From positions 1 through 64,000 of the forward strand of contig CAWAPJ010000008.1 in the NCBI GenBank assembly GCA_963783885.1: 64,000 nucleotides of DNA. Reading direction: 5' to 3'. Position 1 is the stretch's first letter. Every line of letters begins with the position of its first letter. The DNA is from Waddliaceae bacterium (GTDB lineage: Bacteria > Chlamydiota > Chlamydiia > Chlamydiales > SLFE01). A model generated the notes under the pieces. It was not told the origin of the DNA. It saw nothing but the letters and a program-made list of their open reading frames with translations, and did not search any database. A program made the position numbers and the translations under genes. Shown here piece after piece: positions 1-40,717 of the stretch.

Positions 1-74
1 CCGAATCAGGGGGTCTTCCCCTATCTTCCATACAGCTCCCTCACGAGCTAAAGCTTATGAGGTTCGTGTCACAC
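1..74 (-). mobile_element. Group II intron 5' end, copy A (runs off the left edge; completeness unknown)
   Basis: Minus strand begins GTGTGACACGAAC at 74 (GUGYG consensus); identical to the 5' ends of the copies at 2343, 2982 and 5383. Confidence 0.8.
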
Positions 75-104
75 CACGGTACGACCCCTTTTCGGCCCCT
101 TTTG

Positions 105-431
105 TTAAACATATGGCCAAATGATTTTGACTCTTTTGTGTGAAGCATTTTTCCAAAATTTCTGAACATCTTGTAATAAGTGAACATATGCATCTAAATT
201 GCATGGGTTTAAATGAGGTAATTCATCATGAATAATTGCAATAGAATTACTCTCTAGCCAATTCAAGTCGCATAAACAGTCATATAAAGCATCCCAGTTA
301 TATCCAAAATATGATGGAAATTTTAAATTTTTAGAATAAAATTTCATTAATTGATTTTTTTCGTTAATTTCAACAGGTACGTTGATAATTAAATCATAAT
401 TTTCATACTTATTATATTCTTTATTTTTCAT
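105..431 (-). CDS. Barstar-family immunity protein
   Basis: FPSYFGYNWDALYDCLCDL barstar motif; directly downstream of a barnase-like toxin domain. Confidence 0.9.
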   Translation of the reverse strand: MKNKEYNKYENYDLIINVPVEINEKNQLMKFYSKNLKFPSYFGYNWDALYDCLCDLNWLESNSIAIIHDELPHLNPCNLDAYVHLLQDVQKFWKNASHKRVKIIWPYV

Positions 432-436
432 ATCTC

Positions 437-1741
437 TTATCTCACTTTAATAAATGATTGGTAATGATCGGGGGTATAATAAATTTCATCACATTCACCA
501 TAAATAATTCGTTGAGGACCAGGTCCTTTAATACCTGGTGTTGGATGCACGAATTCACGATAATAACTTTCAGTTTTTATCGGTAATAAATTTTCTCTAT
601 TACGGAAAATCGCTCCATCATTTCTATGAGAAAATTTGATACCTTTATCAATTCTTTTAATCGTAGAATTCAGATCATTCCATCCATATAATGCCTGATC
701 TTTTCCAACTTTAATTTCACTCCATACCATGGGAATTTCTTCCGCTGCAACACTTATACTGCTAATTTTACTTGCTTGAATTATAGACGATGCTCCCGAC
801 GTACCTACAACACTTAACAAATCATTTGTGATGGATGCACTTTGCGGTGACATTCCTGCTGTTTGCAGAAGATGTTCAGTTATTGTTGCTGTTTCTCTTC
901 CTGTGATCGCAGTGTTCATGCCGGCAACAAATTGATCAAGGCCATGAGCAAACACGGGCCATCCAACAGGAGCTGCAAGTCCTCCTGAACAGAAAATTGC
1001 CGAACCTCCGGCACTTGCCTCGGCAGCACCTATAAAGGCTTGCAGAGATCCCTGTACCCGAGGATTAGACAAAACATCTATAGAATTGTTGATTAAGGAC
1101 TTAAAATTAAAATCGCGAGCACAGGTAAAGGGATAAACTGCTGCATTTTTCATCCCCTGGAATTGCGCTCGAGGATCATACATGCCTATTTCCTCCGGCG
1201 TTGGGTCCCAATACCCGTCAAAGAGACCATACTCATCGAAATGAGTGAGCGGATTATTGTGAACATAAGCGTAGAGATTGAACCCGTCGGAGTAGCCTGT
1301 CGGATCGCAAGTGGTCCAGCGCCCAAGTGAGGAATCGTAATAGCGGCGCCCGAAATAAATCCACCCTGTTTCGGGATCAAGCCGCTTGCTGGAAAACTGA
1401 TAGGGAGGGGAGAGCCCTTGCGATTTTTCTACTTGTCCAAAGGCGCTGTATCTGGCGGCGTGAACGAAATTGCCTGTTTGAGCGTCGACTAGAGCAATGA
1501 CACTTCCCGATTGATCGTGAGTGGGGGCATAAACGACTCCCTCGATCTCCAGAGCGAAGGCCGCTCCGATTTCTGCGCCGAGACCGGCCCAAAGGGCGCG
1601 GAAAGAAGTAAACGCATCGCCTTCAAGACTGCCTACTTCGCAGCTATCCTGATAAAGGAATTTGGTTGTCGATTCAAGGTTCCAATCATCGAAGGTCTTG
1701 CAATATTTCTGCTTGGCGATTCGCCTGTTGGTCGGTAACAT
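437..1741 (-). CDS. Orphan Rhs core + C-terminal microbial guanyl-specific RNase (barnase/RNase Sa-like) toxin
   Basis: Rhs core YFGRRYYDSSLGRWTTCDP...NLYAYVHNNPLTHFDEYGL; C-terminus FRNRENLLP...YYREF...RIIYG...YYTPDHYQSF. N-terminally truncated; expression uncertain. Confidence 0.85.
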   Translation of the reverse strand: MLPTNRRIAKQKYCKTFDDWNLESTTKFLYQDSCEVGSLEGDAFTSFRALWAGLGAEIGAAFALEIEGVVYAPTHDQSGSVIALVDAQTGNFVHAARYSAFGQVEKSQGLSPPYQFSSKRLDPETGWIYFGRRYYDSSLGRWTTCDPTGYSDGFNLYAYVHNNPLTHFDEYGLFDGYWDPTPEEIGMYDPRAQFQGMKNAAVYPFTCARDFNFKSLINNSIDVLSNPRVQGSLQAFIGAAEASAGGSAIFCSGGLAAPVGWPVFAHGLDQFVAGMNTAITGRETATITEHLLQTAGMSPQSASITNDLLSVVGTSGASSIIQASKISSISVAAEEIPMVWSEIKVGKDQALYGWNDLNSTIKRIDKGIKFSHRNDGAIFRNRENLLPIKTESYYREFVHPTPGIKGPGPQRIIYGECDEIYYTPDHYQSFIKVR

Positions 1742-2346
1742 CTCGCGAAATCAGGTTTCCTGTTTCGCCATAAGTGATGTTGCTTTGCGACCACTCGGCA
1801 AAATTTTATTCAAGAGTGATTCACAATGCAGGGACCGGCCCCCTTTACGACCCCTTCGCTCCATCTCCATTACAGAAACTTCATCACTACTACGAGTCGT
1901 TCCGCCCCCGTGCCGCACATCGATACTCTCGCTCTTATGGGTCTTCCACTTTGAGCTTCTCTCTTATCATTACGACGACGAGTTCACACGTTCCATATGA
2001 AAGCCTATGTTAAGTTCATGCCACCTCTATGCCGGCCGCCGCTCAAGCAGTACTCAGGTTTCCCTTGAGCTTTAGTCCTGGATGCTGCCGTGATGCTTCC
2101 AGTTTTGACGACTTCTAAGGGCCTTACGACATTTTCATACAGTGGTTCACTTTCGTTCATCTCCTTAACATGCACCTGAAATGGTCATTTCCACTCCTTT
2201 TCCTTAACGCTCACCACGTGCGGCAATTTGCCTTCGCAGCTTAAGGTGGTTTGATTCTGCTCCTAAAAGCCGAATCAGGGGGTCTTCCCCTATCTTCCAT
2301 ACAGCTCCCTCACGAGCTAAAGCTTATGAGGTTCGTGTCACACCAC
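775..2346. repeat. ~1.57 kb direct repeat (copy 1): intron fragment + linker + Rhs core + pre-toxin region
   Basis: Near-identical to 3815-5386 (offset 3040). Confidence 0.95.
1847..2343 (-). mobile_element. Group II intron 5' fragment (DI-DIII), copy B; no RT ORF, no DV/DVI seen
   Basis: GTGTGACACGAAC start; EBS2-like GGCCCTT (2117-2123); EBS1 CACGGC (2087-2092) in a CTGGA..TCCAG hairpin; typical DIII GGCGGAACGACTCGTAGTAGTGATGAAG...GTAATGGAGATGGAGCGAAGGGGTCGT. Confidence 0.8.
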
Positions 2347-2394
2347 AGCACAGCCCTATCACGGACCTGTTTTCAGGTCTTTAACTCGGTCCTT

Positions 2395-2559
2395 TTACTT
2401 TTCCTTCTCGACCAAATCTTTAAATACTTGAATCAATTCCAGCATATTGAAAGGGCCACAATAACCTTTAAAAAGGTTATCTTTGATACAACAATAAATC
2501 CAATCCGTGTCAGTTCTATCTATAAATTTTTCAAAAAATTCATGATTATCTAAAATTGT
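2395..2559 (-). pseudogene. C-terminal half of a second Imm53-family immunity gene
   Basis: Manual translation TILDNHEFFEKFIDRTDTDWIYCCIKDNLFKGYCGPFNMLELIQVFKDLVEKEK* aligns with the C-terminal half of 3154-3456; no start, fused directly to intron copy C. Confidence 0.8.
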
Positions 2560-2982
2560 CGATACTCTCGCTCTTGTGGGTCTTCCACTTTGAGCTTCTC
2601 TCTTATCATTGCGACGACGAGTTCACACGTTCCATATGAAAGCCTATGTTAAGTTCATGCCACCTCTATGCCGGCCGCCGCTCAAGCAGTACTCAGGTTT
2701 CCCTTGAGCTTTAGTCCTGGATGCTGCCGTGATGCTTCCAGTTTTGACGACTTCTAAGGGCCTTACGACATTTTCATACAGTGGTTCACTTTCGTTCATC
2801 TCCTTAACATGCACCTGAAATGGTCATTTCCACTCCTTTTCCTTAACGCTCACCACGTGCGGCAATTTGCCTTCGCAGCTTAAGGTGGTTTGATTCTGCT
2901 CCTAAAAGCCGAATCAGGGGGTCTTCCCCTATCTTCCATACAGCTCCCTCACGAGCTAAAGCTTATGAGGTTCGTGTCACAC
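2559..2982 (-). mobile_element. Group II intron 5' fragment, copy C (truncated before DIII)
   Basis: Matches copy B with about two substitutions; homology stops at 2559. Confidence 0.8.
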
Positions 2983-3052
2983 CACGGCACGGCCCCTTCT
3001 CTAGGCCCCTTCTCTGTGGCTCATGGGGTATCCTCCTTTTGTGCAAAAAAAG

Positions 3053-3081
3053 AGTTTACCCCTGTTTTTTTCTCCTATCAA
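3053..3081 (-). promoter_or_regulatory. Candidate sigma70/sigma66 promoter pointing into intron copy C
   Basis: TTGATA-17 nt-TAAACT, followed by AAGGAGG and an ATG at 3024. Confidence 0.35.
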
Positions 3082-3153
3082 GTCTCAATTTTAATCTTGG
3101 CATGTTGCTCAGAACTTTCCCTAGAGAATTAGGCAACACACCCCTTCCTCACT

Positions 3154-3456
3154 TCACATTTCTACCCAATCCTTAAAAACTTTTATCATGTCCATTAAGT
3201 TATAAGGTCCACCATCTCCAAGAAATTGTGTGTTTTCAATTCTACAGCAATACCAGTCAAATTCGGAATTTTCGATTATTTTTTTTGGAAAGTGTTTATT
3301 TTCCAAATTAGTTCCATCGAGTTTTATGGTAATTGCCCAGCCAGGATTATCAATTGTAGTTATAAGAATATTTTGATCATGTTCCCAATCTCCATCACAG
3401 TTACTGTAATACCATTCTTGCAACCACAAAATGGCATCATAATTATCTTTCGTCAT
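3154..3456 (-). CDS. Immunity protein 53 (Imm53) family
   Basis: WLQEWYYSNCDGDWEH...ITTIDNPGW motif; ATGA overlap with toxin stop, GGAGG SD in the toxin's last codons. Confidence 0.85.
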   Translation of the reverse strand: MTKDNYDAILWLQEWYYSNCDGDWEHDQNILITTIDNPGWAITIKLDGTNLENKHFPKKIIENSEFDWYCCRIENTQFLGDGGPYNLMDMIKVFKDWVEM

Positions 3457-4781
3457 GGTACCTCCCAATAATATGGTTCTCTAACACCCCCAGGACATAA
3501 AGGATCATGTATATGAGGAGTTTCTACTCTGATTTCAGTAATTTTATTGTAATGATGATGCGGGTGCATAGGACCATCATATCGTACTCCCAATTCCCAA
3601 GGATTTGGATTTCTTGGATTAGATTGGGGCCAATATGTTTGATATTTTTCTGTCTTACCAGTTATTGGATTTTTTCTGAAAACACTATGCCCCCCATCTG
3701 CAAATTCATCAGGACTAAATCTTTTCCTTAATACTTTATTTTGTTTACCGAAATTTGTAAATGATGAAAATTCGTTAGGAAGTTGAAAACGAGAACAAGC
3801 CTGAAATCTACTCCCTTGAATTATAGACGATGCTCCCACCGTACCTACAACACTTAACAAATCATTTGTGATGGATGCACTTTGCGGTGACATTCCTGCT
3901 GTTTGCAGAAGATGTTCAGTTATTGTTGCTGTTTCTCTTCCTGTGATCGCAGTGTTCATGCCGGCAACAAATTGATCAAGGCCATGAGCAAACACGGGCC
4001 ATCCAACAGGAGCTGCAAGTCCTCCTGAACAGAAAATTGCCGAACCTCCGGCACTTGCCTCGGCAGCACCTATAAAGGCTTGCAGAGATCCCTGTACCCG
4101 AGGATTAGACAAAACATCTATAGAATTGTTGATTAAGGACCTAAAATTAAAATCGCGAGCACAGGTAAAGGGATAAACTGCTGCATTTTTCATCCCCTGG
4201 AATTGCGCTCGGGGGTCGTACATGCCTATTTCCTCGGGCGTTGGATCCCAATACCCGTCAAAGAGACCATACTCATCGAAATGAGTGAGCGGATTATTGT
4301 GAACATAAGCGTAGAGATTAAACCCGTCGGAGTAGCCTGTCGGATCGCAAGTGGTCCAGCGCCCAAGTGAGGAATCGTAATAGCGGCGTCCGAAATAAAT
4401 CCATCCTGTTTCGGGATCAAGCCGCTTGCTGGAAAACTGGTAGGGAGGGGAGAGTCCATGCGATTTTTCTACTTGTCCGAAGGCGCTGTATCTGGTGGCG
4501 TGAACGAAATCGCCTGTTTGCGCGTTAACTAGAGCAATGACACTTCCCGATTGATCGTGAGTGGGGGCATAAACGACTCCCTCGATCTCCAGAGCGAAGG
4601 CCGCTCCGATTTCTGCGCCGAGACCGGCCCAAAGGGCGCGGAAAGAAGTAAACGCATCGCCTTCAAGACTGCCTACTTCGCAGCTATCCTGATAAAGGAA
4701 TTTGGTTGTCGATTCAAGGTTCCAATCATCGAAGGTCTTGCAATATTTCTGCTTGGCGATTCGCCTGTTGGTCGGTAACAT
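3453..4781 (-). CDS. Orphan Rhs core + Ntox24-like C-terminal toxin
   Basis: Rhs core motif; CT with GHSVF...YQTY...NPRNP...RYD...H.N...TPHIH..PGGVR; the Imm53 neighbour fits Ntox24. Confidence 0.8.
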   Translation of the reverse strand: MLPTNRRIAKQKYCKTFDDWNLESTTKFLYQDSCEVGSLEGDAFTSFRALWAGLGAEIGAAFALEIEGVVYAPTHDQSGSVIALVNAQTGDFVHATRYSAFGQVEKSHGLSPPYQFSSKRLDPETGWIYFGRRYYDSSLGRWTTCDPTGYSDGFNLYAYVHNNPLTHFDEYGLFDGYWDPTPEEIGMYDPRAQFQGMKNAAVYPFTCARDFNFRSLINNSIDVLSNPRVQGSLQAFIGAAEASAGGSAIFCSGGLAAPVGWPVFAHGLDQFVAGMNTAITGRETATITEHLLQTAGMSPQSASITNDLLSVVGTVGASSIIQGSRFQACSRFQLPNEFSSFTNFGKQNKVLRKRFSPDEFADGGHSVFRKNPITGKTEKYQTYWPQSNPRNPNPWELGVRYDGPMHPHHHYNKITEIRVETPHIHDPLCPGGVREPYYWEVP

Positions 4782-5386
4782 CTCGCGAAATCAGGTTTCC
4801 TGTTTCGCCATAAGTGATGTTGCTTTGCGACCACTCGGCAAAATTTTATTCAAGAGTGATTCACAATGCAGGGACCGGCCCCCTTTACGACCCCTTCGCT
4901 CCATCTCCATTACAGAAACTTCATCACTACTACGAGTCGTTCCGCCCCCGTGCCGCACATCGATACTCTCGCTCTTATGGGTCTTCCACTTTGAGCTTCT
5001 CTCTTATCATTACGACGACGAGTTCACACGTTCCATATGAAAGCCTATGTTAAGTTCATGCCACCTCTATGCCGGCCGCCGCTCAAGCAGTACTCAGGTT
5101 TCCCTTGAGCTTTAGTCCTGGATGCTGCCGTGATGCTTCCAGTTTTGACGACTTCTAAGGGCCTTACGACATTTTCATACAGTGGTTCACTTTCGTTCAT
5201 CTCCTTAACATGCACCTGAAATGGTCATTTCCACTCCTTTTCCTTAACGCTCACCACGTGCGGCAATTTGCCTTCGCAGCTTAAGGTGGTTTGATTCTGC
5301 TCCTAAAAGCCGAATCAGGGGGTCTTCCCCTATCTTCCATACAGCTCCCTCACGAGCTAAAGCTTATGAGGTTCGTGTCACACCAC
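3815..5386. repeat. ~1.57 kb direct repeat (copy 2)
   Basis: Near-identical to 775-2346. Confidence 0.95.
4887..5383 (-). mobile_element. Group II intron 5' fragment (DI-DIII), copy D
   Basis: Appears identical to copy B; EBS1 5127-5132, EBS2 5157-5163. Confidence 0.8.
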
Positions 5387-5388
5387 GG

Positions 5389-5446
5389 CACGGCCCTATC
5401 ACGGCCCTATCACGGCCCTATCACGGCCCTATCACCACGGCCCCTT
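5389..5446. repeat. 11-bp tandem repeat CACGGCCCTAT x4 plus one variant unit
   Basis: Units at 5389, 5400, 5411, 5422 and variant CACGGCCCCTT at 5436. Confidence 0.95.
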
Positions 5447-5487
5447 CCCGCTAGTAAACTTGGGCCAACTTCCCGCGGCCCGCCTGT

Positions 5488-5748
5488 TCATTGGTCAGTT
5501 TTTGGTATTTCATCAGGTTCAGGATTTCTTACTTCTTTAATAAATTTCATTGATGAAGCACCGAATTTAATAAAATTTTCTCTTGCTTCATTTAAACTTT
5601 CTTTGTTGGCTCCACCTCTATAATTCGGATCATTATATTGAACATAATCATCTTCCCAATTACATACTGGGCAAATTTCATAGGTTCCTGGGGGTGATTC
5701 GGATAGAGTTAAGAAACCGCAACATGGGCATTTATACATTCTAGACAT
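5488..5748 (-). CDS. CPCC-family cysteine-rich protein, probable immunity protein
   Basis: CPCCGFLTL...YEICPVCNWEDD...GGANKESLNEARENF; follows the Rhs CT. Confidence 0.85.
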   Translation of the reverse strand: MSRMYKCPCCGFLTLSESPPGTYEICPVCNWEDDYVQYNDPNYRGGANKESLNEARENFIKFGASSMKFIKEVRNPEPDEIPKTDQ

Positions 5749-5753
5749 AACTC

Positions 5754-8700
5754 TTATTGTACCTCCCAATATAAATAACCATCTTCTGGGCGAAACATCG
5801 TTTTTGGAATGCCTTCCTTAGTGTATGCTCCAAAAGTATTTGTGGATGGATTATATCTTAACATCTCACCATTTACCCTCGTTTTATTGAACACATTTGG
5901 ATCAAAATATAGTTCCCTTGCTTTTTCTAAATATTCCTTAGAATTTCTCAATTCCGGAAATTCAACACAATGGTCTTTCCAATGCTTGTAAGCATTTTCT
6001 ACCGAAGAACGACTTTTAGTAGTAGACCAAATTGGTTTTGTATCTACCGATGATCCAAAAAATCTCTTTTGAACAGAAGCTATTTTAGCACTGATAGTAT
6101 TTTGAGGTGTAGCTCTTTGAACAGCTTTTGCCGCCTTTCTTGTTTTCCATAAAGCGTCAAATGTTCTCATGGCAACTTGAGCAGTCTTTCTCACATAAGG
6201 TATTTTTAAAGCCTTTTTTCCTAAGAATTTGACTCCTCTTCCACAAGCTCCCCACACTTTTTCTCCGGTAAGCTCAAGGGCTGTACCACCGGCAAGTAAA
6301 CCGATTTCCGTAAAGCTTCTTTGAGATATAGGAATCACTCTATTTGGATCATTAGGATCACCCCAGAATTCACTATGCAAGCTGCTTCCAAGCTCATAGG
6401 TACAACCAAAAAAGAAATCTCCCGCTTGTAATGCACCATATTTCATCCCTTGCAGCTGAGCTTCAGCATTGAACATTGCGCTTTCTTCCGGCGTTGGATC
6501 CCAATACCCGTCAAAGAGACCATACTCATCAAAATGAGTGAGCGGATTATTGTGAACATAAGCGTAGAGGTTAAACCCGTCTGAGTAACCTGTCGGATCG
6601 CAAGTGGTCCAGCGCCCAAGTGAGGAATCGTAATAGCGGCGTCCGAAATAAATCCACCCCGTTTCGGGATCAAGCCGTTTGCTGGAAAACTGGTAGGGAG
6701 GGGAGAGTCCATGCGATTTTTCAACTTGTCCGAAGGCGCTGTATCTGGCGGCGTGAACGAGATCGCCTGTTTGCGCATTAACTAAAGCAATGACACTTCC
6801 CGATTGGTCGTGAGTGGGGGCATAAACGACTCCCTCGATCTCCAGAGCGAAAGCCGCTCCGATTTCTGCACTGAGGCCGGCCCCAAGGGCGCGGAAAGAA
6901 GTAAACGTATCGCCTTCAAGACTGCCTACTTCGCAACTACCCTGATAAAGGAATTTTGTTGTCGATTCAAGACTCCAACCTGAGGTTGTCTTGCAATATT
7001 TCTGCTTGGCGATTCGCCTGTTTTGCGAATCGTAGATGTAGCGGTACTTTTCTTCATTCTTAATGACTGTGATAAGGCGGTCAAGAGCGTCGTATAAATA
7101 GGAGCTGTCGCTATCCAAAATGAGATTACCTGCAAGATCATAAGCGTAGGTTTTGCCGTTTGCGGTTAACACCTGATTTAAGTCATTGATGGCAATCTCA
7201 CCGCCGTCATAGGCAATGCGGTTATTGATGGAATCATGGGTGTAGGCATGGGATGCCATACCCTCTTCAGAAACAAGCTGGTCAAGCTTGTCATAAGAAT
7301 AATCACAGTGATTAAGACCCCATTGGTCGGTAACATCCCGCGAAATCAGGTTTCCTGTTTCATCATAAATAAGGTTGCTTTGCAACCAATATTTTGAATC
7401 CTGGGAAGTTTCGCGCCCCATCAAATCATAGCTGATGCCGATTCGGCCCGCAAGACCAATTTGGTGAATACTTTTGAGTTTCCCTGATATGCCGTATCGG
7501 TAGTTTGCGTAATACTCGTCTTGAGATGTTTTGTAGACAGCCTGCAGAAGATGGTCGCCTTGATACAGATATCCAACCTCTTTTTGGTAAGGAAAAGATA
7601 TTTTACCGGTCCTTCCCAGACAATCCTTCTCATAAAAAATTTCAAGATCATTGCCCAGTTTTTCAAAAATCATTTCTGAATGGTCGTTATACCTCCTTTG
7701 AGTCTCAAAGTTATTGATCCGGTCGAGGACAGAGATGAGATTTTTGAGCATGTCGTAAGTATATTCATAGCAAATGGCACTTTCTTCGGGAGCGTTGAGC
7801 GATTCAAGCTTTTCAACAAGCCCCAATGCATTGTAGGTATATTTCAGCACAATTCCGTTTGGCTTGAGAATTTTTTCTTTCTCTCCAAAATCATTGTATT
7901 CGTAACGCGTAATTCTCTGATCATTGGATCCGGCGGCTTCTATCAGGCAAGTCAGCTGATTTGCGCTGTTGTATTCCATAAGATTGATGATTGTACGGTC
8001 ATCTTTTCCCGGAGTAATGACAGTTTGCTCCTCTTGGATAAGATTTCCGACAAAATCAAATCTCTTATCGACTTTCGATAGCATCTGGCCAAATGGATCC
8101 TTTTTCTCAACACGAACGACGCGATCGAAAACATCATAGGTTTCAACCGTCTGAACTCCCTTGGGATCCACAGTCGTTTTTTGTAAAATGCGCTGCCCAA
8201 ATTCATTGCGAAATTCAAAATTGTAATCGATATACGTCGCATACCCTAAGGGATCGATAATTTTAGTCGGTTGATTCAGGACGTTATATTCCGTTTTCGT
8301 GATCGAGAGTCCCTCATCGGTATGGACAATCTCCGATATTTTATTCCCCGTTTCATCATATTCTGTTTGAACCCTGCCCCAAATGCGCCCTGATGAATCT
8401 TCTCGATACTCGTCTATCATCTGATTGCAAAAGTCATAAATTTTAACAGAAGCAATCCAATTCCCATCATGCCATTGCTTAACAACTGATTCTCTTCCCA
8501 GTGAATCATATTCATAGGTTGTGAGTCGGCCTTCCCTCTCAGCGGCAATTTTTCTGCCCGCCCCGTCATAGGAATAATTTGTCTTGACGCCTGCAGCATC
8601 GGTTTCAGAAACAAGCAAAGACCCTTTGTAGGTTTTGGCCTCTTTAGATAGCACCTCTCCATCAGAAGAGATGACAGTTTTGCCAATCAACCGTTTAAGG

Positions 8701-8858
8701 CAATCCCATTCAAAATGAGTTTCTGTTCCTTTTTTATCTTTATGCGTTTTGAGCGTGCCATTTAAATTGTAAATCCATTGTTCAGAAGTTCCATCGGGAT
8801 ATGTGATTGAAGTAGGTTTTCCGAGAATATTGTAGGTTTTTTTTGTTTCCCTTCCCAA
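5754..8858 (-). CDS. Rhs/YD-repeat protein, C-terminal part with core and putative RNase toxin tip
   Basis: Many YD repeats, Rhs core, CT HWKDH..EF...LRYNPSTNTFGAYTKEGIPKTMFRP; same frame as 8910-10030 across a TAA. Confidence 0.9.
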   Translation of the reverse strand: MGRETKKTYNILGKPTSITYPDGTSEQWIYNLNGTLKTHKDKKGTETHFEWDCLKRLIGKTVISSDGEVLSKEAKTYKGSLLVSETDAAGVKTNYSYDGAGRKIAAEREGRLTTYEYDSLGRESVVKQWHDGNWIASVKIYDFCNQMIDEYREDSSGRIWGRVQTEYDETGNKISEIVHTDEGLSITKTEYNVLNQPTKIIDPLGYATYIDYNFEFRNEFGQRILQKTTVDPKGVQTVETYDVFDRVVRVEKKDPFGQMLSKVDKRFDFVGNLIQEEQTVITPGKDDRTIINLMEYNSANQLTCLIEAAGSNDQRITRYEYNDFGEKEKILKPNGIVLKYTYNALGLVEKLESLNAPEESAICYEYTYDMLKNLISVLDRINNFETQRRYNDHSEMIFEKLGNDLEIFYEKDCLGRTGKISFPYQKEVGYLYQGDHLLQAVYKTSQDEYYANYRYGISGKLKSIHQIGLAGRIGISYDLMGRETSQDSKYWLQSNLIYDETGNLISRDVTDQWGLNHCDYSYDKLDQLVSEEGMASHAYTHDSINNRIAYDGGEIAINDLNQVLTANGKTYAYDLAGNLILDSDSSYLYDALDRLITVIKNEEKYRYIYDSQNRRIAKQKYCKTTSGWSLESTTKFLYQGSCEVGSLEGDTFTSFRALGAGLSAEIGAAFALEIEGVVYAPTHDQSGSVIALVNAQTGDLVHAARYSAFGQVEKSHGLSPPYQFSSKRLDPETGWIYFGRRYYDSSLGRWTTCDPTGYSDGFNLYAYVHNNPLTHFDEYGLFDGYWDPTPEESAMFNAEAQLQGMKYGALQAGDFFFGCTYELGSSLHSEFWGDPNDPNRVIPISQRSFTEIGLLAGGTALELTGEKVWGACGRGVKFLGKKALKIPYVRKTAQVAMRTFDALWKTRKAAKAVQRATPQNTISAKIASVQKRFFGSSVDTKPIWSTTKSRSSVENAYKHWKDHCVEFPELRNSKEYLEKARELYFDPNVFNKTRVNGEMLRYNPSTNTFGAYTKEGIPKTMFRPEDGYLYWEVQ

Positions 8859-8909
8859 AGGATCTGTTACTTGTGTGACATTGCCGATGGGAATCGAAAT
8901 ACTGATGCT

Positions 8910-10030
8910 TTACGAGATAGGTTGAAGGCCATTTTCTCCAAGGGTATGGGGAAGAACTGTTGCAATGTTCCGGCCATAGCTGTCATATTTAGTAACCGTA
9001 CCTTCGCCAAATATATTTCTGGACAAAGTTCGATAACCCATTTGATTGTACTTATACGTTTCGACAAAAGAATTGTCCTGTCCATCACGAATTTCTTTTC
9101 TTATTGGCTGATCAAGAAAATTGTATTTATATAAGATAATTTGCCCCGGCTTGGGCCCTTCTTCGCAAATCATGTTCCCATAAATGTCATAGTTTCTCGT
9201 GATAACACGCCCTAAAGCATCCACTTCCCTGGTCATCTTGCCGAATCGATTGTACTCCCACTCCAGTGTATAGCAATAGTTGTCGTCTGCATCGTAAACC
9301 TCTTGCTTTGCCTGCCACCCCTCCCTAGTGTATTCATTCACTAATCGCTTTATCTGCTTTTCCTCTTCAAGGTCGAGATAAACTTCTCTTATCTCTACAG
9401 GAAACCCGATGCAAGGGGCATCTTTTTTCGGAGTGTAATACTTAATGATTCTATGGGTCATTCCTGTAAAATCATCTTCCATTTCAGAGCAGCCGTCATC
9501 GGCAATTTCTTTGATCAAAGTCGAGTTGTTGTCATATTCCATAAATTTTCTGTGAAGAATATTTCCGCTGTCTGTCACAAATTCCTGTGAACAAAGATCG
9601 GTATTGTTTTTATAGGCAAAAATAGTCGTCGTGTCGCCATCAGCGGAGGTAAGCATATTGTTGAATTTGTCATTTGAATAGGTGTATTCTTTAAAACAGG
9701 TTTCTAAAGAATCTCCGCAGCCGCTGAATCGCCCTGTTAAATCCTCTCGGATAACATTTCCGCGATCGTCATAAGTGTATTGATGCTTAAAAAGAGAACC
9801 TGACCAATCCCGCAGTTCTTTCCAGACAAGCCTCTCTTGACTCCATGCAAACACCTCTTGTTTCAACATACTCTTTTCGCAAACACCATGGATAATGTTT
9901 GTAATTTTTAAATTATCACCGTATACAAAGTTGCGCCGATAGCCCAAAGCGTCTGTAACAATTGTATTTCCCCTATAGAGTTGTCTGTTTTTTTCATCAT
10001 TGATTTTATATTCAAAATGATACTGATCGC
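8910..10030 (-). pseudogene. Rhs gene upstream fragment, cut by IS66 and ended by an in-frame TAA
   Basis: YD repeats; frame is open up to the IS66 end at 10031; TAA at 8910-8912 is in frame with the downstream Rhs ORF. Confidence 0.8.
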
Positions 10031-10037
10031 GTAAGCG

Positions 10038-11591
10038 TCATTTAAGCCCATCTGGAAAAATTATTCCAGATTCTTTAGAGATCGAGAGCCCCTTTGCCTT
10101 AGCCCAGCGATCGGGGAGAAGTTCGTACAGCTTGTTTGCGGGGTGATCCATTAAACTGCGCATGACATCTTCAAGATATTCGTGGGGATTAATGCCAAGT
10201 TCACGGCATGTTTGAATAAGGGAATATATGATTCCTGCTGCTTCCCCTCCATTAGCGCTTCCAAAAAAGAGCCAGTTTTTACGACCGATTGCCAAGGGAC
10301 GTATTGCTCGTTCGGCAACATTGTTATCAAGATGGGCAAAGGGTTTTTTGATATAGTTTTTAAGATGAGGAATAAGGTCGCAAAAATACTTCAACGCTGC
10401 CATTAGTTTTGATTTTGGGAGAATTTTATGGTCTTGAAGCTTTTTTTTCGCCTGTTTGATCATTTCGCTGATGATCGGCTCCTCATCTTCCCGCCGTATT
10501 TTTAATCGTTCTTCGGGGGATTTTTCCCAAGCGATTTTTTCATACTTGTAAAGCTCCTGAATTTGGGCTAAAAACCAATCTTTAAACTCTTTATCGCCGC
10601 TTTGGATATCGAAAAATTTACGACGAATGTGCGCCATGCAGGGGCACCAGGTATACTGCTTCATATTCGCAAGCGTTTCATAAGCTCCGTATTTATCGGA
10701 ATGAAGAGTCCCCTTGAAGCCTTTTAAAAGTTCTTTCGCGTTGCAATGCTTGCGGTTTTCGAAAAATTGATAAATCCGATAAGGCGGATCTTTTGTTTTT
10801 CCTCCAGCGAGCGCCCATACATAAGACTCTTTAGTTTTTCCTCTTCCGGGATCCAGCATCTTGACAGGAGTTTCATCCGCAAAAGCATTTTCACTTTCAA
10901 GAATTTTTGTTTTCATTAATGTATACAAGGGTTTTAAGGCGAGACCCGCTTTTACAACCCATGTGCAAAGGTTTTGCCGGCTTATCCTAACATCTTCCCT
11001 TGCGCGCATTTCACTTTGACGGTATAGAGGCAAGTGGTCGGCGTATTTCTTAACCATAATGTCTGCAAGCAGGCTTTCATCCGCAAAACAACGATCTAAT
11101 AATGAACCCGGAAGCGGCGCTATTGAAACTCCATGCTCAGGACGATCCGGAGAAACGTACTTGGGACGAACATACTTTTTAAGGTAATAGCTGGTGGGCT
11201 TGCAAGCAAGCTTATAGGTTACCTCTTCCCCCATTTTTACGAGAGGTTTTCCTGTTTCAGGGCATACTTTCTCCTCTTCGGGAATGTCGACAGGAATAAC
11301 TTCCGTTGGGATATCTTCGGGTAGAGTGATTTTGTCTTTTCCGTTTCTTTTCAGCTTTCGTCTTGTATGGGAAGAAACCGTTTTTTTCTCTTCTTTTTCT
11401 TCTCCTTGAAGATTACCGAAGCCATCGAATTCCAGTTGATTTTCATTCTGGGGGATGATCTTTTCAGAGCGTTTGTCAAATATCTGGCGCTTGAACCATT
11501 CCAGTTGTTCTTTGAAGTAATTGATCTCATTTTTGAGTTCTGAATTTTCTTTCTGAAGTTGTTCTATAGAAGGGTTTTGTATCGCTTTCAT
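10038..11591 (-). CDS. tnpC: IS66 transposase TnpC
   Basis: KYADHLPLYRQ, ADETP, CMAHIRRKF, DNNVAERAIRPLAIGRKNWLF motifs. Confidence 0.95.
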   Translation of the reverse strand: MKAIQNPSIEQLQKENSELKNEINYFKEQLEWFKRQIFDKRSEKIIPQNENQLEFDGFGNLQGEEKEEKKTVSSHTRRKLKRNGKDKITLPEDIPTEVIPVDIPEEEKVCPETGKPLVKMGEEVTYKLACKPTSYYLKKYVRPKYVSPDRPEHGVSIAPLPGSLLDRCFADESLLADIMVKKYADHLPLYRQSEMRAREDVRISRQNLCTWVVKAGLALKPLYTLMKTKILESENAFADETPVKMLDPGRGKTKESYVWALAGGKTKDPPYRIYQFFENRKHCNAKELLKGFKGTLHSDKYGAYETLANMKQYTWCPCMAHIRRKFFDIQSGDKEFKDWFLAQIQELYKYEKIAWEKSPEERLKIRREDEEPIISEMIKQAKKKLQDHKILPKSKLMAALKYFCDLIPHLKNYIKKPFAHLDNNVAERAIRPLAIGRKNWLFFGSANGGEAAGIIYSLIQTCRELGINPHEYLEDVMRSLMDHPANKLYELLPDRWAKAKGLSISKESGIIFPDGLK

Positions 11592-11635
11592 AGCCCATAT
11601 TTTACCAAAAAACACTCTCTAAAAAAAGGAAATAT

Positions 11636-11971
11636 TTAAGTTTTTTCGAGAAAAAATCGGGTGCTGATCCGTTTGGGAATAATGCCTTCAAGCATCATGA
11701 AAAAATCCCTCCTGTTCATGGCAATTTTTCCGGAAGCTTTAAGAGGAAAGCGCCCTTTTTCAAGGCGCTTATACCAGATCGCAAGACCGTCATTATCCCA
11801 GTAGAGCACTTTCATTTTATTGCGCTGGCGATTGAGAAAAACAAAGAAAGCACCTGATGTCGGCTCTTCCAAGGATTGCTCTATGATAGCGCATAAACCC
11901 TCGAAACTCTTTCTCATGTTAACCGGCTCGCCGAAGACAAAAATACGAGCATTTCCTGTAATTGTCAGCAT
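11636..11971 (-). CDS. tnpB: IS66 accessory protein TnpB
   Basis: NMRKSFEGL...KVLYWDNDG...KRLEKGRF. Confidence 0.92.
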   Translation of the reverse strand: MLTITGNARIFVFGEPVNMRKSFEGLCAIIEQSLEEPTSGAFFVFLNRQRNKMKVLYWDNDGLAIWYKRLEKGRFPLKASGKIAMNRRDFFMMLEGIIPKRISTRFFLEKT

Positions 11972-12282
11972 AGGTTTCCTAAAAGTTCCAGGCATCGAGC
12001 AAGCGTAGATTGGTCAAAGTTAGTTGAAAGATGGATGCGGCCTGCAGCCGTTTCGATAATGATTCCGGCATCGGGTCGACTCTCATCCTTTAATTCCAAG
12101 AATCCTTTCGGAGATGAAGGCTTCTTGCTTTGAGACCCCAGGAACCGTACTTTCCAATAAATGCTTTGAGAATAGATGAAATTATTTTCCCTGCTCCACT
12201 CAGCTAAAGACTTACCGCTAGCCTGCCATTGCTGGATTCTATCTTTCCAAGCCAAAGCTGTATCCGACAGTTCATCATGCAT
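11965..12282 (-). CDS. tnpA: IS66 accessory protein TnpA
   Basis: W..RIQQWQASGKSLAEW HTH-like segment, first ORF of the element. Confidence 0.8.
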   Translation of the reverse strand: MHDELSDTALAWKDRIQQWQASGKSLAEWSRENNFIYSQSIYWKVRFLGSQSKKPSSPKGFLELKDESRPDAGIIIETAAGRIHLSTNFDQSTLARCLELLGNLC

Positions 12283-21753: not shown

Positions 21754-22134
21754 ATGCCTTCCTTGCCCTCTTCGATAGTCATCACAAACCTTCTTGAACA
21801 AGCGAAAAAGCTGCAGGCGACGGACGATTGGAAGCCGTTCAGGCCTGGAGTGACTGCTCACTGGCTCTATAACGAAGGTGAAGGCCAGGCCGCAGCGGTG
21901 TTGCTGCGTTACGAGGCGGGAGCTCGCGTTATGCTGCACGAACACATCGGCTATGAGCATATGTATGTTCTTGAAGGCGATCAGTATGATGAGAACGGTT
22001 CGTATCCTGCCGGCAGCTTTGTCGTTCATCCCCCTGGAACTAGGCACTCTCCAGGCAGTGCTAAAGGCTGCATCGCACTGTTGATATATGAAAAGGGTGT
22101 CCGCTTTATAGAAAAAGAAGGCGTTGTTGCATAA
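21754..22134 (+). CDS. Cupin-domain protein (ChrR-like)
   Basis: LLRYEAGA...HEHIGYEH.YVLEG...PPGTRHSP; last four codons and stop come from the IS end. Confidence 0.85.
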   Translation: MPSLPSSIVITNLLEQAKKLQATDDWKPFRPGVTAHWLYNEGEGQAAAVLLRYEAGARVMLHEHIGYEHMYVLEGDQYDENGSYPAGSFVVHPPGTRHSPGSAKGCIALLIYEKGVRFIEKEGVVA

Positions 22135-22181
22135 ATCACCACTGAGACCACCGAGCTCACTGAGAGATTATGAGAGAGGAA

Positions 22182-22589
22182 TTAAATGATTAGACGCCTA
22201 ATCCCATTTTTTAGAAGTTTTACATTGAAATTGATGAGCAAACCTCTGCCACCGCCATTATGCTTAAGATAGGATAGAAGTTGGGCCTCATGAACAGGCA
22301 AGAGATTGGCCACAGATTTTATCTCCAAAATAACCTTATCTTCCACTATCATATCGATCCGGTAGCCTGAGTCTAGCTTTTTATCACGATAAATAATAGG
22401 TACTGGTATCTGCCGGTTAACTTTCAAACCCGCAAGGTTCAACTCGTAGCAAAGACAAGTTTCGTATGTCGATTCAAGCAAGCCTGGACCTAATCTTCGA
22501 TGAACTTCAATCGCAGCACCTATGATTTCCCCTGTTAAAAGGTCATTTCTTTTTTGGTTGGCTTCTTCAGTTGTGTGGGTACTAGTCAT
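22182..22589 (-). CDS. GxxExxY protein (PD-(D/E)XK nuclease superfamily)
   Basis: LGPGLLESTYE...YRIDMIVEDKVILEIKSV...HEAQLLSYLK...GLLINF. Confidence 0.92.
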   Translation of the reverse strand: MTSTHTTEEANQKRNDLLTGEIIGAAIEVHRRLGPGLLESTYETCLCYELNLAGLKVNRQIPVPIIYRDKKLDSGYRIDMIVEDKVILEIKSVANLLPVHEAQLLSYLKHNGGGRGLLINFNVKLLKNGIRRLII

Positions 22590-22673
22590 CTTTTCTCCAA
22601 AAAGGGCGAATGCGAGCTTGCCGACAAATACCTAATACTCTAATTTTTAGTTGCAACAAATTGGAGGATCAAG

Positions 22674-23618
22674 ATGAAGGCAAAATATCGCATTCGCAAC
22701 TGGAACGACTATAACAAATCTCTTATTCAAAGGGGAAGCATAACTGTTTGGTTTTCTGAAGATGCTATCAATAAGTGGATGGCTCCAAAAGAAATAGGAA
22801 AAAAGGGGCGTCCAAAACTCTATTCTGATGACGCTATTCTCACCGCGCTCATTATTCGATCGGTTTTTCATCTTCCATTGAGAGCACTCGAAGGATTTTT
22901 GACATCTCTTGTTATGATTTTATCTGTTGGTTTATCGATTCCTTCTTATACTCAAATTTGTCGGAGAGCTAAGTTGTTGGGGCAAGAGTTGAAGAAACTT
23001 TCGAAAAAAAAAGTCACCAATATTGTAATCGATTCAACCGGTTTGAAAGTGTACGGAGAGGGTGAATGGAAAGTTAGGCAGCATGGAATCAGTAAAAGGC
23101 GAACATGGAGAAAGCTCCATCTGGCAGTCTGCCCTGACTCTCACGAAATTATTTTCGAAATTCTTACTGAAAATAACGTTGCAGATTGTGAAGTGTATCC
23201 AAAACTTCTCGAGGTAATGCCGAAATCAGTTAAGCGCACATATGGAGATGGGGCTTATGATACTAAGCGATGCTATGCTGCAAATGTAGTTCACGGCTCA
23301 ATTCCTATTATTCCACCCAATAGGAATGCTGTTTTTCGAGAAAACATATCTCCTTCTTGGAAGATGCGGAATATCAGTTTGCTGGAAATTTCAGGTTTAG
23401 GAGGTGATGATGATGCAAGAAAATTATGGAAAAAGTTGAAAGGTTATCATCGTCGATCACTTGCAGAAACAGCCATGTTTAGATTTAAACGATTCTTTGG
23501 AAATGATTTAAGAAGTAGAACTCTGGAAACCCAAAGGGCTGAATCAAGGGCAAAATGTGAAGCACTAAATATAATGACAAAGCTGGGAATGCCTGAAAGT
23601 GAATTAATAGCAGCTTAA
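22674..23618 (+). CDS. IS5-family (IS903 group) transposase
   Basis: NW.DYNKSL.QRGSIT, IDSTGLKVYGEGEW, WRKLHL, GDGAYD, GYHRRSLAETAM. Confidence 0.95.
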   Translation: MKAKYRIRNWNDYNKSLIQRGSITVWFSEDAINKWMAPKEIGKKGRPKLYSDDAILTALIIRSVFHLPLRALEGFLTSLVMILSVGLSIPSYTQICRRAKLLGQELKKLSKKKVTNIVIDSTGLKVYGEGEWKVRQHGISKRRTWRKLHLAVCPDSHEIIFEILTENNVADCEVYPKLLEVMPKSVKRTYGDGAYDTKRCYAANVVHGSIPIIPPNRNAVFRENISPSWKMRNISLLEISGLGGDDDARKLWKKLKGYHRRSLAETAMFRFKRFFGNDLRSRTLETQRAESRAKCEALNIMTKLGMPESELIAA

Positions 23619-23847
23619 ATCAAATCTCTCATATTCTCTCTGTGCGCTCTTGTGAGCTCTGTGGTTAATTACGCAACAAAGCCGAAAAAGAATGATATTT
23701 GTTCTTATTTCATTGAATATCAATATCTTTAGTATTTTATTTTAAATATAATTAAATAATTTAGTTTATTTAATACGTTGTTTGTTATAATTATTATATA
23801 ATTATATTTTTAATTTCTAAATTTAAATTGGAAATAAGGGGGAAAGA

Positions 23848-25242
23848 ATGGATATTCATCAAAATTCTAAAACCAGTCCTTTGAACCCTTATCAAAATCA
23901 GGAAAATTCGACAAATAAGCCAGAACAAGGGATAAAAGGCCGCATTTCGAATATTTTCAAAAGATGTTACAAAAAAATAACTCGTTCGTCTTCAATATCT
24001 TCTGGTAAAAAAGTGCGTTCCGGCTCGGTTGGTAGAAGTCGTGTGTCTTCTGTCTCTAAGCATGTATTCGCGAATTTTCGGGGGAAGGAAACTATTTCAG
24101 AGAATGATTTTGATAGAATTATGAATTATGTCAATAAGAATAAGGAAACGCTATTTAAAAAACCCGGTTATTATCGAAAGGAAAAGACAGATTTGCCGAA
24201 TACCATACAGGTTCAGGTCCCTAAAAAAGCAAAAAGTTCCGATGATCTAGTCATTCATGTTCATTTAAAAGATTGGATTAATGAAGGAGCAGAAAAATTT
24301 CTAAAATTATCATTTAGCTATGATATGAAGAATCAAGAAATTCACTATGTCGCTACCGGGACGCCTAGATCAACATCGAAAACTGAAAATCCGGAGCCAA
24401 CACCAAGAGAATTGCTTAAAGCCAAAAGAAGATTTGAAAAAGAGATCGCCATGCTTAAACGGTTTGAAGGTAAAAAGGGCGTTGTTCAGCTCAAGGGGCA
24501 TGCGGTTTATGCCGTTAAAGGATACACAGCTGAGCAGAGACCAAAAGTGAACATGGTTTTTGAAGTAGCTGAAAGTGATCTCTTTGACACCTTAGTAAAA
24601 CTGCATTATGCGGAAGAGAGTGTCAAACAAAAATGGAAGAGAGGTTCAAAAAGGAAACAATATGCTTATAATATTTTGCAGGGGCTTGATAATATCCATA
24701 AGGAAGGAGTGATTCACTTTGATATCAAGCTGGACAATATCTTAATTTGTGAAGGAAAAGCAAAAATCGCGGATTTTGGTTTTGCGGCAGATGAGGCAAA
24801 TCTCAAGAAGAAATTCAGAGGAACGCCGATTTATTTATCCTCTGAGATGCTCAAACTTGTTAAATTTAAATTCGAAGAGGATAAGTATCGCCCAGGCTCT
24901 CAAAAACGTGCTGAAGCAGAATCGTATGTTAGGGAATATGAACGATTAATAGGGAAAAAAACCGATGTTTACAGCACAGGGATTTGTTTGTACTTCTTAA
25001 AGTATCTCGATTTTCCAACATATATTTATAGGAACAAAGATCAAAAAACTGATAGTGATGTTTTGAGACCGGATAATGTCGATGATCATATTAACGAACT
25101 TCACCAGTGGTATGAAAGTTTTCAGCCAGACGATGAGGAGGGGCTTTTGATCAAGGATATGTTAAATCCTGATCCCCGTGAAAGAATCACTGCTGCTAAA
25201 GCGCTTGCCAGGATGAAAAAAATCAAGGGTGAAAAATTATGA
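23848..25242 (+). CDS. Hanks-type Ser/Thr protein kinase-like protein, candidate secreted effector
   Basis: IHFDIKLDN, IADFG, GTPIYLSSE, DVYSTG, DPRERIT; Ser-rich N-terminus. Confidence 0.82.
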   Translation: MDIHQNSKTSPLNPYQNQENSTNKPEQGIKGRISNIFKRCYKKITRSSSISSGKKVRSGSVGRSRVSSVSKHVFANFRGKETISENDFDRIMNYVNKNKETLFKKPGYYRKEKTDLPNTIQVQVPKKAKSSDDLVIHVHLKDWINEGAEKFLKLSFSYDMKNQEIHYVATGTPRSTSKTENPEPTPRELLKAKRRFEKEIAMLKRFEGKKGVVQLKGHAVYAVKGYTAEQRPKVNMVFEVAESDLFDTLVKLHYAEESVKQKWKRGSKRKQYAYNILQGLDNIHKEGVIHFDIKLDNILICEGKAKIADFGFAADEANLKKKFRGTPIYLSSEMLKLVKFKFEEDKYRPGSQKRAEAESYVREYERLIGKKTDVYSTGICLYFLKYLDFPTYIYRNKDQKTDSDVLRPDNVDDHINELHQWYESFQPDDEEGLLIKDMLNPDPRERITAAKALARMKKIKGEKL

Positions 25243-26438
25243 TTGGAAAGGTTTGTTTTCTCGTTCACGATAATCTTTACAACTCCAAAAGAGAGTTCGC
25301 AGCAGGTCTTGAGGGTGCCTTTAAGCGGCTAGGCATTGAGACAAAAACCATCGACATTCGGGATCTGGAGCTGAATAAGGACCAAATATCGGTGCTCTAT
25401 CAATTTGCCCCTAATTTCATGTGTACATTCAATACAATGATGCCGCTGGAGGACGGGACGTTCATCTGGGATGCTTTGGAAACGCCCCATGTCTCCTTTT
25501 TGGTTGATCCGGCGATTTATTACCTCCATTTAACAAAAAGTGATTATTCGGTGATGACCTTTGTCGACCGCAATGATGATGAGATCCTTGCGTCGGCAGG
25601 ATTGAAAACCCGATTTTTCTTTCCCCACGCAGTAGAAAAGTCTCTCGCAGAAGCGCCATTGAAGACAGACCGCTCCTTTGATGTGGTTTTGATGGGAAGC
25701 TGCTATGACCATGAAAGCGTAAGAGCGGCCTGGGAAAGGCAGTATCCGAAGCCTGTTGGAAGGGTAATTGAAGCGGTTATTCAACGAACTTTTGCAGAAC
25801 CTAAATCCTCCTTTGTCCAAATCCTACCCGAGGAGTGGGTTAGAGAGGGGCTTGATCCCAAGAGTGTTGATTTTCAAACGATTTACACTTATATCGATTA
25901 TTATTTGCGCGGATACGACAGGCTGGAGCTTTTGAAAAGCATTAAAGATGTCGACGTGCATGTATTTGGCGATATTTTCTGGCTTGAAGGGAAAAATCTG
26001 AAAGGATGGAGCGAATATTTGTCGGGGATGTCCAATATTACGGTCCATAAACCGGTCCCTTTCAATCAGTCTTATGAAATATTGAAAAATTGCAGAATCT
26101 GTTTGAACAGCACGCCATTTTTCAAAAACGGATCGCATGAAAGACTTTTTATTGGTTTAAGCGCCGGATGCACGGTGCTCACGAGTGAAAATCTTTATCC
26201 TCATGAAGTGTTTGGGGCAAACAAGGGCATCGAATATTACCGTTTTGATCAGAGGGAGCTTGTAGGCGAGTTCATTCAAAACATTTTGTTTGATGAATCG
26301 GCGCGCCTAGAGAAGGTTGCCATCGGTAAAGAAATCGTTAAACGAGACCATACCTGGGACAATCGCGCGGAGCTTTTGCTGCAAATGATGCCCGATATGA
26401 CCTCGGAAATCTTTGCCCGCACAATGAATCCCAATTAA
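25239..26438 (+). CDS. Glycosyltransferase (CgeB/GT1-like)
   Basis: ICLNSTPFFKNGSHERLF...HTWDNRA. Confidence 0.75.
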   Translation: MIGKVCFLVHDNLYNSKREFAAGLEGAFKRLGIETKTIDIRDLELNKDQISVLYQFAPNFMCTFNTMMPLEDGTFIWDALETPHVSFLVDPAIYYLHLTKSDYSVMTFVDRNDDEILASAGLKTRFFFPHAVEKSLAEAPLKTDRSFDVVLMGSCYDHESVRAAWERQYPKPVGRVIEAVIQRTFAEPKSSFVQILPEEWVREGLDPKSVDFQTIYTYIDYYLRGYDRLELLKSIKDVDVHVFGDIFWLEGKNLKGWSEYLSGMSNITVHKPVPFNQSYEILKNCRICLNSTPFFKNGSHERLFIGLSAGCTVLTSENLYPHEVFGANKGIEYYRFDQRELVGEFIQNILFDESARLEKVAIGKEIVKRDHTWDNRAELLLQMMPDMTSEIFARTMNPN

Positions 26439-27259: not shown

Positions 27260-27283
27260 AACTTTTCCATGGCATAGGGATGA

Positions 27284-27523
27284 TTATTTTGCAATGTCCT
27301 CAGACTCATTATAAGATGTGCAGATGGGGCATTTGGAAATTCTTTTTTCAATGGCTGCCAAATAAACCTGGCTGCAATACTCGCAAGTCACGAGTTTTTG
27401 TTTAGAGGTGACAACACTCTTTTTTCGAAGGCGGAAATGGCTTGCCAGCCAGATGGAGAGCATGGCGAGTATCGTCAGACCGAGGTAGATCATAACGGCA
27501 GTGTGCGGGGCGAGTTCTATCAT
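27284..27523 (-). CDS. Small membrane-anchored zinc-ribbon protein
   Basis: N-terminal TM, CEYC..CPIC; overlaps upstream stop. Confidence 0.7.
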   Translation of the reverse strand: MIELAPHTAVMIYLGLTILAMLSIWLASHFRLRKKSVVTSKQKLVTCEYCSQVYLAAIEKRISKCPICTSYNESEDIAK

Positions 27524-40682: not shown

Positions 40683-40717
40683 ATCTTATTACCTTTAAAT
40701 TAGTTAGATAAGCTAAT

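Follow-up and report, generated by a model that had tools for sequence, protein, structure and literature searches.

Group II intron fragments at a cassette-end linker motif in an Rhs toxin–immunity array of a Waddliaceae bacterium

The stretch of DNA analyzed here (the window) comprises the first 64 kb of contig C8 (CAWAPJ010000008.1), starting at contig base 1, in the draft assembly GCA_963783885.1 of a Waddliaceae bacterium (G000; 2.16 Mb, 46 contigs, 88.9% complete). On its minus strand, at positions 1–10037, lies an Rhs locus consisting of a main gene, a small CPCC open reading frame (ORF), and two orphan modules, and each module is followed by the 5′ fragment of one group II intron, with 5′ ends at 5383 (copy D), 2982 (copy C), 2343 (copy B), and 74 (copy A). 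A preliminary description of this DNA proposed that each cassette ends in an intron-binding site (IBS) of its own, complementary to the exon-binding sites EBS1 and EBS2 of the intron, and that splice-site recognition has been kept at each junction or that each junction is an independent insertion. The junctions were compared with related sites elsewhere in the assembly, in a genome of the same genus (G379), in a genome from another family (G359), and in further genomes of the phylum.

The presence of RHS_repeat, of a YD-shell end, of Ribonuclease together with Barstar, and of Imm53 identifies the region as an Rhs/YD polymorphic toxin locus with orphan modules, all of its features being on the minus strand. 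The main Rhs gene (5754..10037; RHS_repeat, E 6e-31) contains one in-frame stop near 8910 and is otherwise open to 10037, where its 5′ end adjoins an IS66 element (transposase, 10038–11615; TnpB, 11636–11995). Because the reading frame is open right up to this element, the N-terminal part of the gene is missing; intact Rhs paralogues on contigs C43 and C44 are 1600–1640 amino acids (aa) long. The small Cys-rich CPCC ORF (5488..5769; PF14206, E 4e-32) follows the end of the main toxin and, by its position only, is taken as the putative immunity gene of cassette 0. Orphan cassette 1 (3453..4833), identified from its YD-shell end, repeat families, and translation, is composed of an Rhs core-end fragment and a C-terminal toxin domain, with repeat families D2, D3, and D5 common to the main gene or the other orphan, and is followed by an Imm53 immunity gene (3154..3468; PF15580, E 9e-33). 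Orphan cassette 2 (437..1793) combines a core-end fragment with a ribonuclease toxin domain (PF00545, E 2e-11) and is followed by a barstar-type immunity gene (105..431; PF01337, E 8e-20). In addition, a stray 3′ part of an Imm53-like gene (~2397–2558), homologous to an immunity gene on contig C19, is joined to intron fragment C.

The intron fragments and the linkers that precede them are arranged as follows. Linker D (5384..5435), with 4.3 tandem 11-nt units at 5389–5435 and IBS2-GT-IBS1 at 5384–5399, leads into intron fragment D (4890..5383; RF01999), which extends from nt 1 to ~494 and contains domains I–III and the start of domain IV; behind it (4834..4889) stand a second copy of the motif (4869–4885; position weight matrix (PWM) score, 23.1) and a 35-nt spacer (4834–4868) with a start like that of the X spacer described below, both recognized by alignment with intron-free sites. 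Linker C (2983..3015), with two tandem 13-nt units and IBS2-GT-IBS1 at 2983–2998, precedes intron fragment C (2559..2982; nt 1–424). Linker B (2344..2359), in which IBS2-GT-IBS1 carries two C-to-T variants, precedes intron fragment B (1850..2343), which is identical to D and is again followed by a second motif (1829–1845) and spacer (1794–1828). Linker A (75..101), with two tandem units and IBS2-GT-IBS1 at 75–90, precedes intron fragment A (1..74), which is cut by the contig end and not by a biological event; C8 and C19 are probably connected at this copy. Every copy begins with GTGTG, and the covariance model RF01999 (group II D1-D4) matches B, C, and D at 92.4 bits (cut-off, 36), so that the 5′ GUGYG and domains I–IV of a group II intron are both found. 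Elsewhere in the assembly, copy E (C19:711) is the last unit of an array and runs into unrelated genes, and copy F (C43:16960), only 46 nt long, lies downstream of an intact Rhs gene of 1600 aa and of the ORF after it. Metagenome contigs (Logan, four runs) reproduce the junctions, with contigs of other introns diverging at 4890/4891, a divergence that carries no information on a full-length copy in this organism. The organism is present in soil and salt-marsh samples.

The four 5′ flanks of copies A–D read exactly as they had been quoted. The pattern RGGGYYGTRCYGTG (at most one mismatch) was found to have four matches in the window, all directly 5′ of a GTGTG intron start, with 0.13 matches expected and four reached in 0 of 100 shuffles. 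The genome-wide count that had been proposed gave six matches in the assembly, five at intron junctions and one intron-free (C44:677); junction F carries GTCGTG and hence falls outside this strict pattern, and still fits the motif. The flanks had also been described as largely different further upstream, which holds beyond about −24 nt and fails for flank B, this being homologous to flank E. At every junction the motif is tandemly duplicated, in 2 to 4.3 units of 11–18 nt. In the G379 orthologue of junction B (L032; G379:C3 11660–11720, against window 2344–2385), two extra 18-nt units are placed exactly between the motif and the intron. The motif has the character of an unstable, microsatellite-like array.

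The assignment of EBS1 to CACGGC (5127–5132, 2726–2731, and 2087–2092) and of EBS2 to GGCCCTT (5157–5163, 2756–2762, and 2117–2123) was examined in an alignment of copy D (first 500 nt) and 12 relatives, all from the same order; when 400 genomes of the phylum were sampled, 20 contained such relatives, this genome included. The RNAalifold consensus of the 13 introns contains 123 pairs, 86 of them with compensatory changes, and places CACGGC in the terminal loop of a hairpin and GGCCCTT in an internal loop that has a covarying helix on either side. The loop homologous to EBS1 forms at least seven contiguous pairs with the last eight exon nucleotides of its own intron in 9 of the 13, and the EBS2 loop at least five pairs with its own flank (−17 to −7) in 12 of the 13, across unrelated targets; since this helix measure allows G-U pairs and is not anchored at the splice site, its off-diagonal values are noisy. 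The unrelated targets whose flanks match the loops include an IS66 transposase gene, the YxDD-coding stretch of the reverse transcriptase (RT) genes of other introns, and intergenic sites, and the clearest case is G199, where IBS2 is unchanged, IBS1 differs, and the 8-nt EBS1 matches it perfectly. In single-sequence folding, EBS1 occupies a 9-nt loop in both the minimum-free-energy and centroid structures, and EBS2 is unpaired in the centroid and partly paired in the minimum-free-energy structure; folding, on which the preliminary description had staked its assignment, thus did not place either element elsewhere, and the assignment is borne out by loops that match their own flanks in the relatives. 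The presence of EBS2 argues against class IIC, introns of that class being described as lacking EBS2 (PMC4424553).

An IBS-like site at every junction was likewise confirmed, all ten junctions of G000 and G379 pairing with the EBS loops at 12–13 of 13 positions. Six positions vary across these junctions. Four of the variants are C-to-T changes that give G-U pairs, and the other two, in copy A at −6 and in copy G379_8262 at −3, are true mismatches. The claim that the variants mostly preserve pairing stands as a count and is statistically weak, being nominally unusual only when no GC-to-AT bias is assumed, the probability of at least four pair-preserving variants among six being 0.007–0.08 under transition weights of 1–4 and that of at least four among five being 0.14 under a GC-to-AT-only model, with an uncertain number of independent events behind each value. 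Such variants are explained equally well by the choice of target at insertion and by later maintenance. A candidate compensatory pair (nt 9/31) in G379_8262 was rejected, as these positions are not paired in the covariation-supported consensus.

All copies lack domains V and VI, the fragments stopping at nt 494 or earlier. No match to domain V (RF00029) was found among 128 scored candidates in the assembly, at its 88.9% completeness, and RVT_1 and GIIM, the reverse transcriptase and maturase domains, gave 0 matches each there. Nor does the assembly contain a matching 3′ half, that is, domains V/VI with a 3′ exon, for trans or alternative splicing. In six long copies (B, D, and E in G000 plus three from G379), the 3′ break is the same and the same second motif follows it. 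Other copies end earlier, C after 424 nt, F after 46 nt, and the orthologue of C in G379 after 38 nt, and each of these is joined to different DNA. The copies are thus non-functional for splicing and are eroding by further deletions. With domains V/VI and the intron-encoded protein absent from all copies and from the assembly, the argument of the preliminary description against simple decay, and with it the idea of kept 5′ splice-site recognition, is not supported; its second option, independent insertion at each junction, is not favored given the one 3′ break of the long copies.

The linker motif is not confined to intron junctions. The same 17-nt motif was found by alignment and weight-matrix scanning at 14 sites of the assembly. 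A PWM scan gave 19 matches at a score of at least 16, compared with 4 in random sequence, 11 of the matched sites having been used to build the matrix and hence being found by construction; 6 of the 19 are followed by an intron 5′ end, 8 by the left end of a spacer, X, or a variant of it, and the remaining 5 by neither, a number that fits random expectation; the scan added no further sites. A likeness to the motif at C11:29659 lies within a gene and was discarded as fortuitous. In the intron-free Rhs array of contig C22, the motif stands 50–75 nt after the last ORF of a cassette and is followed by X at two sites. X is ~125 nt long, with inverted ends and an inverted copy of the motif at its far side, and the X spacers and intron-free motif sites are at C22:36570–36720, 40590–40700, and 42460–42580, C44:664–720, and C29:123070–123104. 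Seven intron-free sites pair with the EBS loops at 10–12 of 13 positions. The motif is therefore a pre-existing linker at cassette ends, whether or not the intron is present, and the occurrence of IBS motifs at the intron junctions follows from this. A possible Xer/dif-type likeness of the left part of X was dropped, as the G359 version of X does not share it.

The orphan core fragments of the C8 array (4834) and the C22 array (40590) start at an identical position of the Rhs core. The sequence before them differs, being the intron-linked spacer in C8 and the right end of X in C22, and the common start suggests a shared ancestral unit boundary.

In copies B, D, and E, homology to the relatives stops at about nt 494–497 and is followed at once by the second motif and the 35-nt spacer with its X-like start, this second motif being almost the same as a motif-plus-X site of G359 that lacks the intron. 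Intron nt 485–497 themselves resemble a motif unit, for which reason a deletion reaching to a downstream motif unit would be the simplest origin of the break.

Introns of the same sublineage occupy the same motif in G199, G321, G359, and G229, the G199 copy with an 8-bp EBS1/IBS1 match. Of the four 3′ ends of introns of this sublineage in G359, two adjoin the left end of an X-like element, and that genome also has a motif-plus-X site with no intron. In a second intron lineage (L061, G359:C149; L062, G229:C12), the EBS1 loop is complementary to the other strand of this motif, at which these introns are inserted, so that two lineages use opposite strands of one motif. From these sequence comparisons, it is concluded that the motif-plus-X junction is a likely preferred target of group II introns in this order. 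Around intron and motif sites in other genera, RHS domains were found in 0 of 10 adjoining ORFs scanned; the association with Rhs is thus seen only in this genus among the genomes searched. A full-length relative in G147 has RVT_1 and GIIM and no endonuclease domain. The ORF-less intron L039 (G359:C13, 175–840, minus strand; ~660 nt), with domains I–III, a minimal domain IV, and domains V/VI, is 82% identical to the fragments. Three related copies (L033 in G152, L017 in G052, and L020 in G143) are inserted, twintron-like, in the YxDD-coding stretch of other RT genes, and several G-U pairs contribute to the match between that stretch and their EBS1/EBS2 loops.

Comparison of the units with one another points to DNA recombination. 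Units B and D show 0 mismatches over 856 nt from intron nt 1, a stretch of which 494 nt belong to the intron fragment, 56 nt to the second motif with its spacer, and 306 nt to the core; beyond it they differ by ~2%, and then the toxins diverge. Upstream of the intron, 2 of 16 nt differ, and homology ends at 24 nt. Among 10 copies, 12 sites are polymorphic, and their variants are combined in mosaic fashion. The outermost bases (~20 nt) of a block of homology normally escape gene conversion, and the identity of B and D together with the mosaic sites fits a repeat unit that begins on its left at the junction and undergoes gene conversion or unequal recombination. Moreover, truncated copies cannot retrohome, and their spread is hence attributed to DNA recombination.

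Exchange has also taken place between species. A 7.9-kb housekeeping stretch (24076–32000) is 85% identical between G000 and G379, compared with 97–99% for the intron blocks (97–100% for the intron fragments), 98% for module 1, and 100% for an IS element. These identities of array, toxin, and IS element, far above that of the housekeeping stretch, point to a recent exchange of the array between species. Module 1, an orphan here, is in G379 the terminal part of the main rhs gene, at 98.2% identity (L032; G379:C3 841–4529, against window 2945–4769). The crossover in G379 lies inside the core, which implies that toxin switching uses the core, as in classical Rhs loci, with no need of the intron. 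Outside the locus, an IS-like element of ~1.57 kb (window 22120–23685) is 100% identical to at least 17 copies in G379, which suggests that mobile DNA moved recently between these species. The neighboring glutamate dehydrogenase gave hits of at most 57% identity, to Planctomycetota/Verrucomicrobiota-type MAGs and others.

Taken together, these results favor the view, to which a probability of roughly 0.65 is assigned, that a cassette-end linker served as homing site and that the intron copies are truncated relics spread by recombination rather than working splice sites. The last unit of a short tandem linker, the 13–16-nt sequence before each copy, would mark the ends of Rhs cassettes and would also constitute the natural IBS2-IBS1 homing site of one endonuclease-less group II intron lineage across the order. 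The intron would have inserted between the motif and the spacer after it, and the inserted copy would then have lost everything past nt 494, probably by microhomology deletion between nt 485–497 and a downstream motif unit. Made up of intron fragment, second motif, spacer, and Rhs core-end, the block left behind may thereby have become a constant part of the array repeat unit, to be spread and homogenized by homologous recombination and gene conversion. On this account, the junction persists as the left edge of a homology block, and splicing plays no part in its preservation.

Several observations weigh against this interpretation. The assembly is incomplete and breaks at repeats, so that it could have missed a full-length copy or a solitary domain V. 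In G379, a single domain V/VI stands isolated next to a transposase gene. For the local copies, the 3′ exon is not directly visible, and the EBS1 loop of L039, the closest ORF-less relative, mismatches its own flank (three pairs). As for X, it may be an element like a miniature inverted-repeat transposable element, a recombination site, or something else. Finally, occupied sites pair better (12–13 of 13) than intron-free ones (10–12 of 13) and four of six variants keep pairing, as would fit maintained recognition. Separately from the isolated domain V/VI, one RT is encoded on another contig of G379.

Among the alternatives, independent retrohoming, in which a full-length intron inserted after each immunity gene and the copies were later truncated or converted to one allele, survives best and is nonetheless unlikely. 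It would account for flanks that differ although the intron bodies are identical, would find many available targets in the motifs at intron-free cassette ends, and agrees with the occupied sites being those that pair best with EBS1 and with an older allele at nt 38–40 in copies F and G379_8262. However, independent truncation would not reproduce six long copies with one break and the same motif and spacer, neither RT nor domain V was detected in the assembly, and the unconverted outer ~20 nt of a homology block would alone explain the divergent flanks. Pure co-duplication, by which a single insertion was copied with the 16–24 nt upstream as the unit edge, the variants being random and the motif tied to the intron, is improbable: the homology of B and D does start 24 nt upstream of the intron and all variants are single-base changes, but the motif is intron-free at eight sites of the assembly and in the genome from another family, tandem repeat number and unit length vary between junctions, and the two classes of flank sequence follow the cassette and not the intron. 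Least credible, and very improbable in our estimate, is a kept function, with exon-DI-DIII RNA cut by domain V supplied in trans or serving as a structured mRNA 3′ end and selection keeping the pairing, since, against the four of six pair-preserving variants, the 97–100% identity of the fragments between species with 85% housekeeping identity, and a domain I fold more stable than shuffles (z −2.3), there stand the lack of domain V in the assembly (the sole one in G379 being an unrelated-looking orphan fragment), two true mismatches, the tolerance of fragments of 38, 46, and 424 nt, an interspecies identity that also spans the IS element and toxin genes and so reflects recent transfer rather than constraint, and promoter-like sites no more frequent than by chance (12 versus 10.9 expected in positions 1–6000, none on the minus strand within a fragment).

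If the relics are read in this way, as recombined remnants at a homing site, the target preference of a retroelement can leave a falsely “maintained” splice-site signature, in which the conserved IBS is a property of the linker. Within one order, the intron lineage would home in several genera to a short tandem motif that adjoins a palindromic-ended spacer, and an Rhs toxin array would carry its relics in nearly the same form in two species whose housekeeping DNA has diverged to ~85% identity. The papers listed in a search of the literature on group II introns with Rhs toxin–immunity systems or Chlamydiae include no description of introns in Rhs arrays; those listed for Chlamydiae deal with engineered introns or unrelated topics.

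The arrangement can be compared with several known systems. In enterobacterial orphan Rhs arrays (as attributed to Jackson 2009 and Koskiniemi 2014), a main rhs gene is reportedly followed by promoterless modules of core-end, toxin, and immunity gene, and modules are said to be switched by recombination in the core. The array described here differs in its inter-module spacer, which is a defined unit of motif, spacer, and intron fragment repeated with the core. In the intron C.te.I1 of Clostridium tetani, the repeated parts are reportedly 3′ segments (domains V/VI), and splicing is said to fuse reading frames. The repeats in the window, in contrast, are 5′ segments without domain V that lie after a stop codon and an immunity gene. 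Such 5′ halves cannot bring about exon fusion, and alternative splicing of the C. tetani type is therefore not at work here. The two systems are alike in having repeated partial segments of an intron among alternative protein-coding modules and in the involvement of an ORF-less intron (for C.te.I1 alternative splicing, see PMC3919590). Fragmented and ORF-less bacterial group II introns have been described (PMC4424553) as non-autonomous remnants in intergenic and mobile DNA; the fragments here share this non-autonomous remnant state, with an ORF-less relative in G359 that has domains V/VI, and owe their multiple copies to the recombining repeat unit that carries them and not to retromobility.

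The closest parallel is with introns of integron arrays. Group IIC-attC introns (PMC4424553; see also PMC3001079) resemble the present lineage in being specialized on a short structured cassette-end element, with copies lying between cassettes. The present introns differ in that recognition involves both EBS1 and EBS2, in their orientation, which is that of the cassettes, in the nature of the cassettes, which are Rhs toxin ends, and in the 3′ truncation of all local copies. In halophiles, group IIB introns occur in association with the attC sites of integrons (PMC7923331); these are likewise non-IIC introns linked to cassette arrays, the array type being different. A recombinase was found in 0 of 14 ORFs scanned around the arrays, and an integron is thus not supported.

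By analogy with these systems, the unit of motif, spacer, and intron remnant might itself be a working cassette linker, an intron-built counterpart of integron attC sites, although this is a doubtful proposition. If it were true, the 0.5-kb constant block together with the Rhs core-end would provide homology on both sides of every cassette and would drive the capture, reshuffling, and interspecies transfer of toxin–immunity modules. Aid of this kind from the relic block would give group II introns a part in the diversification of polymorphic toxins, a role that the present evidence does not require. The idea parallels proposals that have been made for IIC-attC introns and the genesis of cassettes.

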